Below, one piece after another: positions 28,665 through 32,013 of a stretch of 42,701 bases of DNA. The DNA comes from an uncultured Rhodospirillaceae bacterium. Lineage in GTDB: Bacteria > Pseudomonadota > Alphaproteobacteria > Micavibrionales > UBA2020. The notes below the pieces were generated by a model. It was not told the DNA's origin and did no database searches. It worked only from the letters and a program-made list of their open reading frames with translations. The DNA lies in assembly GCA_964349475.1 (NCBI GenBank), contig CAYGGT010000005.1, forward strand, positions 1 to 42,701. The letters run 5' to 3'. Position 1 is the first letter of the stretch. Each line of letters starts with the position of its first letter. A program made the translations under genes and the position numbers.

Positions 28665-29213
28665 TTAAAAAATACTTTCGAGCGTATTTTGTTTCTTTTC
28701 AATCACAGGGACGGCGCCATCGGTAATGGGTTTACCTTCGGCCTGGTTTTTTTTAATGCGCGCGGCTTCGGCGGCAGGATCAACGACCGAAGAAGGGATG
28801 TTGTCAGCGGGCTTTTCGTCGTCCCAGAAAATCAGCTTCTCGGCGACCGTGCGGTTGTTAAAAGAGAGAATGCCGTTTTCTTCGTCAATGCGCCGGCGGA
28901 TGTCAGCGTCGGCAAGACCAGCCCCCAGCTTGTCCAGCAAGGCCGTTTCCGCAGCGCCCTTGGTGACGGGCGCGGACGTGCTGCCCAGCACCGCTTGCCG
29001 GGCCGTTCCCGACGCGGCGGCGGCGAGCGGCATTTCTTCCTGGGTTGTCGGCGGCCGCAAGGTGTAATCAGGCGGCATGGTCAGCGGCGCCTGTTTCACG
29101 ACCATGAACTCATCGGGTGAATTCCGGTCCACCCCCAGCTCCCGCTTCACCACGTTACAGCCGGTCAGGGACAGCAGAACGGCGATGATCAGGATATTTT
29201 TTAAACGTGTCAT
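28665..29213 (-). CDS. DUF3035-like lipoprotein
   Basis: A lipobox (LSLTGCN) is followed by a low-complexity periplasmic protein. It makes an ATGA overlap with the lspA stop. This is the usual partner position downstream of lspA in alphaproteobacteria. Confidence 0.7.
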   Translation of the reverse strand: MTRLKNILIIAVLLSLTGCNVVKRELGVDRNSPDEFMVVKQAPLTMPPDYTLRPPTTQEEMPLAAAASGTARQAVLGSTSAPVTKGAAETALLDKLGAGLADADIRRRIDEENGILSFNNRTVAEKLIFWDDEKPADNIPSSVVDPAAEAARIKKNQAEGKPITDGAVPVIEKKQNTLESIF

Positions 29214-29794
29214 TTTTTTCCCCGTTGTTCGTCTTTGGTGAGCAGCGCGTCCAGCATCAGAAGGCCGGCGCCGATGACGATGCAGCTGTCGGCCAGGTTG
29301 AAAGCCGGCCAGTGAGACGTGCCGATATGCACGTCGATAAAATCAGCGACGGCGGAAAACCGCACCCGGTCGATCACATTCGCCAGCGCCCCGCCGATGA
29401 TCAGGCCCAATGCCGCAGCAACTATTCTGCGGCTGGCCATGGCGAGCCAGATGATCAGCAGCAGCGAGATCATCATCGACAGCGCGATAAAGAACAGCTG
29501 CGTGCTGACGCCATCCGTGTCCATCAGGCCGAAACTGATGCCCCGGTTCCAGACCATGACAAAGTTCAGCAGGGGCGTAATCGCGACCGTTCTGAAATTT
29601 TCCTGCTCCAGAATAAAAAACGCGACTTTCTGCTGGGTCACGAACCAGTCAAAGAACCCGCCCGCCGCAGGCCCATCTATACGCAGTACAGTTTCCATGA
29701 CCAGCCACTTGGTGTATTGATCTGTCAGAAACGCCGCGAACATAATGATAAAACCCAGGAGAAAATGTCTTCCGACAGCAGAAGCTTGAGGCAT
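29210..29794 (-). CDS. lspA: Signal peptidase II module with its own possible start inside the ribF-lspA ORF
   Basis: The ATG at 29794 ([19 protein letters not shown]) is preceded by AAGGA at a 7-nt spacing. LspA catalytic Asp motifs are present downstream. Confidence 0.6.
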   Translation of the reverse strand: MPQASAVGRHFLLGFIIMFAAFLTDQYTKWLVMETVLRIDGPAAGGFFDWFVTQQKVAFFILEQENFRTVAITPLLNFVMVWNRGISFGLMDTDGVSTQLFFIALSMMISLLLIIWLAMASRRIVAAALGLIIGGALANVIDRVRFSAVADFIDVHIGTSHWPAFNLADSCIVIGAGLLMLDALLTKDEQRGKK

Positions 29795-30766
29795 GAGGCT
29801 GTCCTTCTTGCAGTAGCGGGGGCATGAAAGCACAGCTTTCGCCTCTAAGCAATCCACTTTCATTTGCCGGATGAGCATCGGCAAATTCGAGAAAGAAAGT
29901 TCCGGCCGTAAATAATGCACCGGGCGGACGCGCATCATCTTGCCATAAACATCGTCGTCAAAATCGAAGATGAAAGTTTCAAAAACCGGCTGGGGCCGCA
30001 AGAACATCGGGCGGATGCCGAAACTGGCGACGCCGGTGCGCCACATGGCCCTGCCGCTCCCATTTTTTTCCTTCTCGTCTTCGATCAATACTTCCACCGC
30101 ATAGACGCCGTAAGGGATGCGAACCTGCGCGCCCATGTCCTGGTTGGTGGTGGGATAGCCCAGCGCGCGGCCGCGCTTGTCGCCGTGCACGATGAGCGCT
30201 TCCGTCTGCCAGGGCCAGCCGAGCAGGTTTTGCGCTTCGGAAAATTTACCCTGCCGCAGCAAAGCGCGGATGGCGGTAGAAGAGTAAACTTGGCCTTCCG
30301 GAGAAGCGACGGTCGGCACGACGGTGAGTTCGAATTGTCTGTTTTTTAAAGTCTCGACCGTGCCTGTCCTGCCCCGTCCGAAGGAAAAATCCGCGCCGAC
30401 GACGACGTGCCGGACTTTCAGTTTTTGAATCAGGATGCGGTCGATGAACGCATCCGCGTCCAGCTGCGAAAACACCTGGTTGAATCCCCAGGCAAAGAGG
30501 TGATCCACGCCCATCTCTCCCAGCAGGCGGCCTTTCATCGGCAGCAAGGTCAGGCGGAAAGGCGCCGCGTCCGGATAAAAAAACTGCTGGGGATGCGGCT
30601 CGAAAGTCAAAACGCCGAGAGGCGCTTGTTCCTTGGCAGAGATTTCCTGTGCGGCCTTGATCAGCGCGCGGTGGCCCAGATGCACGCCGTCGAAGTTTCC
30701 GATCAGCAGCACGCACCCCTCTGCGTCAGGAGGGATGCTGCTTTGATCGGTGTGAAGCGTGATCAT
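29210..30766 (-). CDS. ribF: Single 518-codon ORF joining RibF (FAD synthetase/riboflavin kinase) to LspA (signal peptidase II)
   Basis: Residues 1-313 are RibF-like ([15 protein letters not shown], riboflavin kinase [14 protein letters not shown]). An 11-aa linker follows. Residues 325-518 are LspA-like ([28 protein letters not shown]). No stop codon separates the two parts. Confidence 0.8.
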
Positions 30767-32013
30767 GCCGCGCGTTTCAGGCTAAGTCCCGCCCAGACAT
30801 CGCACAGCGCATCCGCCAGCGCCGCCATATCGTCGTCGGTATGAAACGGCGTCGGGGTCAGGCGCAGACGTTCCAGTCCGCGCGGCACCGTCGGGTAATT
30901 GATCGGCTGAACGTAAATATTATGGCGGAGCAGCAGTTCGTCGCTGGCGCGCTTGCAAAGCCGCGCATCGCCGATCAGCAGCGGCACGATATGGCTGACG
31001 GACGGCATCACCGGCAAGCCGTGACGGAGCAGCAGTTTCTTGAGGACAGCCGCGCGTTCCTGATGCTGCGCCCGTTCCGCCTGCGACGTTTTCAGGTGCT
31101 GCACGCTGGCAATCGCGCCCGCCAGCAAGCACGGCGGCAGCGCGGTCGTGAAAATGAAACTGGCGGCGTAAGACCTGACGACATCGACAATGGCCTGGCG
31201 GGCGGCAATATAACCGCCCATCACGCCAAACGCCTTGCCGAGCGTGCCTTCTATGATGTCAATGCGATCCATCTGTCCCGTGGCTTCGGCGATGCCGGCG
31301 CCCCGCGGGCCGTACATGCCGACGGCATGCACTTCGTCAAGATAGGTCAAGGCGCCGTATTTTTCTGCGAGGTCGCAAATATCTTTGATCGGCGCGACGT
31401 CGCCGTCCATGGAGTAAACGGATTCGAAGGCGATGATTTTGGGGCGGCATCTTTCCACCGTATGCAGCAGCGATTCCAGATGCGCCAGGTCGTTATGCCG
31501 GAAAATAAGCTTTTCGCAGCCGCTTGAACGAATGCCCTGAATCATCGAGGCGTGGTTCATTTCATCGGAAAAAATCATGCAATCGGGCATGATTTTTCCA
31601 AGCGTGCCCAGCGCCGCTTCGTTGGAAACATAGCCGGAGGTGAAAACCAGCGCCGCCGCCTTTTGGTGCAGGTCGGCCAGTTCTTGTTCCAGCAGCACAT
31701 GGTAATGCGTGGTGCCGGAAATATTGCGCGTGCCGCCGGCGCCGGCGCCGGATTGCCGCACCGCCGCGCACATGGCGTCAAGAACTTTCGGGTGCTGGCC
31801 CATGCCGAGGTAATCGTTGCTGCACCAGACCACCACTTCCCGCGCATGACCCGCCGCATCGCGGTAAAGGGCTTTGGGAAATTTTCCCGCCTGCCGCTCC
31901 AGGTCGGCAAAGACGCGATAGCGCCCTTCCTTGTGCAGGTCGGCAAGACGATGTTCAAAAAAACTTCCGTAAAAATCCAGAAGAGAATTTTTGGGAGGGG
32001 CGGCACGCAGCAT
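30763..32013 (-). CDS. hemA: 5-aminolevulinate synthase
   Basis: This is an alpha-oxoamine synthase fold with the ALAS N-terminus ([23 protein letters not shown]), the PLP lysine GTLGKAFG and SVYSMDGD. It makes an ATGA overlap with the ribF start. Confidence 0.9.

Follow-up and report, generated by a model that had tools for sequence, protein, structure and literature searches.

In a stretch of 42,701 nucleotides from an uncultured Rhodospirillaceae bacterium (GTDB lineage Alphaproteobacteria; Micavibrionales; UBA2020; GenBank assembly GCA_964349475.1, contig CAYGGT010000005.1; called the window here, at its full length), ribF, the gene for the riboflavin kinase/flavin adenine dinucleotide (FAD) synthetase RibF, continues without a stop codon into lspA, the gene for signal peptidase II. 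RibF-LspA joins the domains of two well-known enzymes in a new combination, and we consider it likely that it represents a genuine and recent fusion, produced in one lineage by loss of the ribF stop codon and tolerated there. We propose that ribF of the ancestor would have ended a few codons past ...AVLKS, with lspA starting shortly afterwards at its own Shine-Dalgarno sequence and ATG, and that in a species-level, Micavibrio-like lineage the ribF stop would have been lost with the short spacer in frame, so that every ribosome on ribF would continue into lspA and make a protein of 57.8 kDa.

The ribF-lspA reading frame and its two halves

The listing of open reading frames (ORFs) gives a single ORF of 518 amino acids (aa) with an ATG start at 29210..30766 on the minus strand. 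In agreement with the initial annotation, this listing, Pfam and NCBIfam together describe a complete RibF (residues 1-313), an 11-residue linker (314-324) and a complete LspA (325-518). The parts of the ORF are as follows (FMN, flavin mononucleotide; AF2, AlphaFold2; pLDDT, predicted local distance difference test).

29210..30766, minus strand: RibF-linker-LspA ORF, 518 codons, predicted product 57.8 kDa
30275..30730, minus strand: FMN adenylyltransferase module of RibF, residues 13-164 (FAD_syn, PF06574, 160.9 bits), with HLGH at 29-32 and YSSTAIR at 161-167
29828..30223, minus strand: riboflavin kinase module of RibF, residues 182-313 (Flavokinase, PF01687, 105.3 bits, full profile, 1-124 of 124), with PTTN at 205-208 and E263; AF2 pLDDT >90
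29795..29827, minus strand: linker [11 protein letters not shown], residues 314-324, from the sequence; coil with low pLDDT in both AF2 models
29807..29809, minus strand: codon AAG (K320), the 10th codon counted from GCT GTG, at the slot taken by the ribF stop TAG in L058, the closest relative
29802..29806, minus strand: Shine-Dalgarno-like AAGGA, 7 nt upstream of the lspA ATG
29210..29794, minus strand: complete lspA reading frame from M325 to K518 with its stop codon; 194 aa and 21.4 kDa if translated from its own start
29342..29344, minus strand: codon of the catalytic Asp D475 (VADF), aligned with the Asp of VVDF in Pseudomonas aeruginosa LspA (position 124 counted on chain 9emz)
29288..29290, minus strand: codon of the catalytic Asp D493 (FNLAD), aligned with the FNLAD Asp of the P. 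aeruginosa enzyme (position 143 counted on chain 9emz)

The LspA half is matched by Peptidase_A8 (PF01252) at residues 341-508 with 111.3 bits against a cut-off of 25, and the NCBIfam models are passed for both enzymes, namely the RibF equivalogs NF004160 (305.1 against a curated 295) and TIGR00083 (233 against 184.35) and the lspA model TIGR00077 (103.6 against 73.95). The DNA across the junction reads GCT GTG CTT TCA TGC CCC CGC TAC TGC AAG AAG GAC AGC CTC ATG CCT, translated as [19 protein letters not shown], in which ATG at 29794-29792 is the internal lspA start M325. An alternative genetic code or a recoded stop was rejected as an explanation, because the junction holds no stop codon at all. 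From the RibF core to the lspA ATG all three frames are free of stops, and the other two frames meet their first stops at 29725 and 29649. Because these alternative frames remain open past the lspA ATG, no insertion or deletion restores a stop before lspA, and only a base substitution could do so. A slip in the homopolymeric C5 run (TGC CCC CGC) was likewise rejected, as the shifted frames run 36 and 61 codons into lspA.

The fusion was found in three assemblies: the window contig (42.7 kb), a Logan contig of 4.7 kb from ERR3094292 (L021) and a contig of 26 kb from the European Nucleotide Archive entry ERZ27247837 (L022). The junction is letter-for-letter identical in all three, and their haplotypes differ in single-nucleotide polymorphisms (SNPs). 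The Logan contig differs from the window at 6 of 4,698 positions, and five of these six differences fall in the lspA half, where three are synonymous and a double change gives I448T; the third assembly shows two differences in the 3′ part, and its 5′ end, which lies inside the upstream gene hemA, is strongly diverged. At the protein level, the 518-aa sequence forms a cluster of two members, each of 518 aa. Among 5.8 billion protein clusters, neither RibF nor LspA is recorded as a near-identical separate protein; the best other RibF is 65% identical (317 aa) and the best other LspA 69% identical (194 aa). A stop-bearing variant of this species is not on record either, and an exact-flank scan for the junction in Joint Genome Institute metagenomes gave 0 matches. 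Since three pipelines agree on different haplotypes and indels are excluded, an assembly or base-calling artefact is unlikely, and the fusion is very probably real at the DNA level, as judged from these assembled sequences. The sequencing error that the initial annotation had listed among its three options is now an unlikely one, with three identical junctions and no indel that could restore a stop before lspA.

To model the protein, the fusion was folded twice by AF2, with RibF rows alone and with LspA rows alone, and the two halves were thus modelled separately; a single combined alignment was discarded, as MAFFT misaligned either the LspA rows or the RibF rows. The RibF half matches every invariant column of a 47-row alignment (among them G23, N24, D26, G27, H29, G31, H32, S162, S163, R167, G195, D196, R198, G199, P205, T206, N208 and E263). 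The motifs HxGH and SST..R define the family, as in the FAD synthetase of Corynebacterium ammoniagenes (CaFADS), and the only motif deviation in the window RibF is PTTN for PTAN, with T rather than A at the third position. In the model with RibF rows, the block-mean pLDDT lies mostly between 86 and 98 over residues 1-319, with three dips to 60-75 (10-residue blocks), and the riboflavin kinase module closes with a helix from 292 or 295 to 312 or 314. Foldseek TM(target) values are 0.77-0.87 against 2x0k, 3op1, 1mrz and 1s4m. The window RibF thus resembles type I RibF in HxGH, SST..R, PTxN, the catalytic Glu and its fold, and it carries the same FMN adenylyltransferase and riboflavin kinase modules as CaFADS (2x0k) and Thermotoga maritima TM379 (1mrz). 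In contrast to known RibFs, which are soluble and ~290-340 aa long, it bears a C-terminal protease with four transmembrane helices.

The LspA half matches every invariant column of a 45-row alignment. All 14 of the highly conserved residues described for LspMrs (D21, K25, N52, G54, G102, N106, D109, R110, V116, D118, F132, N133, A135 and D136; PMC6952399) have counterparts here (D349, K353, N407, G409, G459, N463, D466, R467, V473, D475, F489, N490, A492 and D493), and each counterpart is invariant in the 45 rows. The catalytic Asp dyad is D475/D493 by alignment to 5dir and 9emz, and the N-x-G-x-x-F and FNLAD regions that the initial annotation had noted in a complete LspA were located as WNRGISF at 406-412 and FNLAD at 489-493. 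In the model with LspA rows, transmembrane helices span 335-361, 420-443, 447-470 and 491-517 and strands span 394-407 and 473-481; the block-mean pLDDT is mostly 76-98 from ~331, with dips to 59 at 411-420 and to 69 at the last residues. The Foldseek TM(target) is 0.77-0.80 against 5dir and 0.74-0.76 against 6ryo and 6ryp. Like the LspA of P. aeruginosa (5dir) and of Staphylococcus aureus (6ryo/6ryp), the window LspA has four transmembrane helices and a beta-cradle, and together with its alphaproteobacterial relatives it has an insertion of ~40 residues after the first transmembrane helix. It differs from known LspAs, which are ~160-200 aa long with a short cytoplasmic N-terminus, in that its N-terminus can carry an enzyme of 324 residues.

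No second Peptidase_A8 or Flavokinase gene was found in the window's genome, which is 84% complete. From their conserved residues and predicted folds, both halves look functional.

Probable origin by stop loss, and a possible use of the fusion

The separate genes of relatives suggest how the fusion arose. Among 40 related genomes searched, both halves were matched in all except two incomplete genomes, and 22 relatives were dissected, comprising 19 genus/family genomes, two named metagenome-assembled genomes (MAGs; L023 and L024) and L058, the closest relative found. Among named relatives, the nearest are MAGs under the labels Micavibrio sp. and Alphaproteobacteria bacterium. All 22 keep the ribF stop, followed by the lspA ATG with its own Shine-Dalgarno sequence. 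In the search of relatives that the initial annotation had suggested, the stop-less junction was found in the three assemblies of its own lineage and in none of the 22 relatives.

In the 19 genus/family relatives ribF adjoins lspA, and the lspA ATG lies anywhere from 4 nt inside ribF to 52 nt past it. Stand-alone pairs end ribF with TAA, TAG or TGA within this range of -4 to +52 nt around the lspA ATG, whereas the window reads through. The RibF tail extends 0-11 residues beyond ...AVLKS before the stop, and its length and sequence vary freely. In 7 of the 19, ribF and lspA share a frame with one or two stops between them. Two relatives (L016 and L020) already show an overlap between the ribF stop and the lspA start (ATGA). 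The Micavibrio-like stand-alone pairs (Micavibrio sp. Chal_Metagen_Bin5, JAPWJZ010000004.1; Logan SRR22387849_135095) have the same order as the window, (hemA-)ribF-lspA-DUF3035 lipoprotein-GNAT, and AAGG(A/G) 6-8 nt before the lspA ATG; the protein identity is 52-69%.

The closest relative (L058; LspA 69% and RibF 64% identical) ends ribF with GCT GTG CTT TTA TCG CCG GGA TCG GTC TAG (protein AVLLSPGSV), and after 14 nt the lspA ATG follows. Its TAG is the 10th codon from GCT GTG and occupies the slot of the AAG (K320, 29809-29807) in the window, in which the spacer is 2 nt shorter. A change from TAG to AAG at codon 320 together with the 2-nt difference in spacer length would suffice for the fusion, and we propose that this is how the ancestral stop was lost. 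Upstream of lspA, AAGG(A/G) is common to all aligned genus members, and the motifs of the relatives (AAGGA, AAGGG or AGAGGA) are homologous to the AAGGA of the window; the start signals inside the window's ORF are thus the ancestral ones. By its sequence, the linker is the old RibF tail plus the old ribF-lspA spacer, now translated. Stop loss by mutation, also among the options of the initial annotation, therefore emerges as the probable origin of the fusion, with a stop in 22 of 22 relatives and a TAG at the K320 slot in the closest one.

Searches for the architecture elsewhere gave a consistent picture. When the whole protein was compared with 1.84 billion cluster representatives, the best 150 matches were all RibF-only and ≤419 aa long. 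A search with the LspA part among proteins of 285-906 aa found five, and RibF domains occur solely in the window's own; the others are a 366-aa LspA with an unassigned extension (P0272), two methyltransferase-LspA proteins of 379-381 aa (P0273 and P0274) and a 474-aa protein with an IleRS anticodon domain before LspA (P0275). The methyltransferase and IleRS-domain proteins likewise place a cytoplasmic enzyme on the cytoplasmic N-terminus of LspA, and differ from the window in the partner domain, with no RibF in any of them. A full-text literature search on ribF, lspA and fusion protein returned only an unrelated paper, and nothing was returned for the two sample accessions. Within reach of the searches made, RibF-LspA is unique to one species-level lineage. 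A conserved multidomain family of the Rosetta-stone type, spread over several divergent lineages, was not found (0/22 relatives), and the comparisons do not support a conserved or selected architecture.

These results bear on the strongest alternative, namely that the fusion is adaptive and that RibF is tethered beside LspA for a local supply of FMN/FAD to membrane or exported flavoproteins, or for a fixed stoichiometry of the two enzymes. That both halves are intact and are the sole copies found speaks for this alternative, as does the fixation of the fusion in all three haplotypes seen. However, none of the 22 relatives has the fusion, and seven of them are one or two stop codons away from it and yet keep their stops; it is also absent from the best 150 matches and from the other LspA proteins of 285-906 aa, and the linker is merely the old tail and spacer with the Shine-Dalgarno sequence still inside. 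In addition, we know of no function that connects the synthesis of flavin cofactors with the cleavage of lipoprotein signals, which counts against an adaptive fusion. We therefore regard this alternative as unlikely. Somewhat less probable still is the more specific proposal that the fusion is kept as a useful membrane-anchored FAD synthetase, coupled to lipoprotein processing, that delivers flavin at the inner membrane of a predatory, genome-reduced bacterium. If this were true, the fusion could tie cofactor supply to envelope biogenesis and would be a test case for spatially organised flavin metabolism.

A recent stop loss remains the preferred explanation, and the fusion would then be tolerated as a neutral or slightly costly change, not as an evolved and conserved bifunctional machine. 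On this explanation, the locus offers a clean and datable case of a multidomain protein arising from a tight operon, with a spacer of 0-50 nt, through a single stop loss, and in 7 of the 19 genus/family relatives only one or two stop codons stand in the way of the same fusion. No long-standing question is opened by this finding, and nothing indicates a new mechanism. For annotation, the appropriate label of the ORF is RibF/LspA fusion; it should be neither split nor flagged as a frameshift, and the internal lspA start should be marked.

Topology, translation products and the remaining explanations

LspA has four transmembrane helices, and its C-terminal residues reach into the cytoplasm (PMC6952399). 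This topology places the LspA N-terminus in the cytoplasm, so that a fused cytoplasmic enzyme is compatible with it, and supports the view taken in the initial annotation that a fusion at this end is feasible. In both AF2 models the C-terminal helix of RibF ends at 312-314. The first transmembrane helix starts at 335 in the reliable model with LspA rows; in the model with RibF rows a helix begins at 328, at low confidence in that region. By a hydropathy scan, the first hydrophobic segment lies at ~330-348. The stretch between the RibF helix and the first transmembrane helix is coil or a very short helix, and confidence is lowest at ~315-330. The product would thus consist of a cytoplasmic riboflavin kinase/FAD synthetase, a flexible tether of ~20 residues (314 to ~334) and a four-helix LspA in the inner membrane.

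As no stop codon intervenes, all RibF is expected in the form of the 57.8-kDa membrane-anchored fusion. The AAGGA that the initial annotation had placed 7 nt before the LspA ATG at 29794 lies at 29806-29802 with exactly that spacing, and the preserved AAGGA-N7-ATG makes an extra, free LspA of 21.4 kDa likely. We propose that the old lspA start, now inside the ORF, would still yield free LspA of 21 kDa besides the fusion, and such a product is probably made. The dual expression considered in the initial annotation is therefore plausible, the ATG and AAGGA being homologous to the start signals of the stand-alone lspA of relatives. We infer that the fusion protein accumulates, that internal initiation takes place and that RibF works in its tethered state. 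Should the cell make the protein as encoded, it would show that an essential soluble enzyme can function with a permanent membrane anchor provided by a second essential enzyme.

Alternatively, a cytoplasmic or membrane protease might cleave the translated fusion within the linker, releasing soluble RibF and free LspA. In favour of this, the linker region of ~20 residues is predicted to lack structure and to be exposed, and it contains the basic residues R317, K320 and K321; however, no recognisable processing site was found in it, and we give this alternative only a small probability. At the border of RibF and linker, V-L-S-C (residues 312-315; 29822-29833, minus strand) loosely fits a lipobox, [LVI][ASTVI][GAS]C. 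It was rejected as a site for LspA itself and is regarded as a coincidence, as no signal peptide precedes it and it lies on the cytoplasmic side, whereas the catalytic dyad of LspA faces the outer leaflet of the membrane (PMC6952399).

The least probable alternative is a sequencing or assembly artefact, or a consensus of a mixed population, that conceals a stop and two ordinary genes: the sequence comes from a fragmented MAG (189 contigs, with 84% completeness and 4.6% contamination) and 6 of the 11 linker codons are one substitution from a stop, but the same junction was recovered by different pipelines on different SNP backgrounds in three assemblies, indels cannot bring back a stop before lspA, and near-identical separate proteins are missing among the 5.8 billion clusters.

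Several points nevertheless weigh against a recent and tolerated stop loss as we have described it. The evidence consists of assembled sequences, for which a shared systematic error or a minority variant bearing the stop is possible, and the three assemblies may stem from related samples. As the genome is 84% complete, a second ribF or lspA could lie on the missing DNA. The alignment of TAG with AAG joins genes that are ~65-69% identical at the protein level, which makes the mutational path only suggestive. Finally, the three haplotypes are >99.6% identical and are uninformative on selection acting on the linker.

Neighbouring genes and local signals

The ribF-lspA ORF sits in a chain of genes without any intergenic base, flanked by the following two genes.

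30763..32013, minus strand: 5-aminolevulinate synthase gene (hemA), upstream (TIGR01821, 665.9 bits); its TGA overlaps the ribF ATG (ATGA)
28665..29213, minus strand: DUF3035 lipoprotein gene, downstream (PF11233), with a signal peptide and the lipobox LTGC; its ATG overlaps the lspA TGA (ATGA)

In the E. coli-type gene order, ribF, ileS and lspA follow one another, and it was to this classical cluster that the initial annotation had referred. The adjacency of ribF and lspA is borne out; ileS lies between them neither in the window nor in any relative. In the window's genome (G000), ileS is split over two contig ends (C107:2-1378 and C162:2-1111) and is unlinked to ribF-lspA.

RNA structure around the internal lspA start was not significant (z = -1.69), and terminator-like matches were no more frequent in the scan than shuffles predict. 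Four promoter-like matches were found against 1.5 ± 1.4 in shuffles, all of them weak (9 of 12), and a weak -35/-10 match ~140 nt upstream of the lspA ATG was not accepted as evidence for a promoter. A crude census of Shine-Dalgarno sequences in the window was discarded, being too heavily contaminated by spurious ORFs for use.

In hemA, the first 190 nt of the ENA contig (L022:1-190, corresponding to ~31750-31940 of the window) contain 20 mismatches within ~90 nt and 96 initial nucleotides that do not align; elsewhere the identity exceeds 99.9%. Either hemA carries a patch of strain-level recombination here, or the contig is chimeric at this end.

A DUF3035 gene directly follows lspA in the window and in four relatives (L023, L024, L052 and L058). 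Its lipobox reads LTGC in the window, LGGC in L023, VAGC in L024 and LTAC in L052, and L058 has the same PF11233 gene. The DUF3035 start and the lspA stop overlap by 4 nt in both the window and L058. With a lipoprotein gene adjoining lspA, a likely substrate of LspA is encoded right behind its peptidase in these loci. One genus relative has, away from its ribF-lspA pair, a second and partial match to LspA (G007:C8:3234-3593; 44% identity to residues 393-510), which may be an lspA paralogue.

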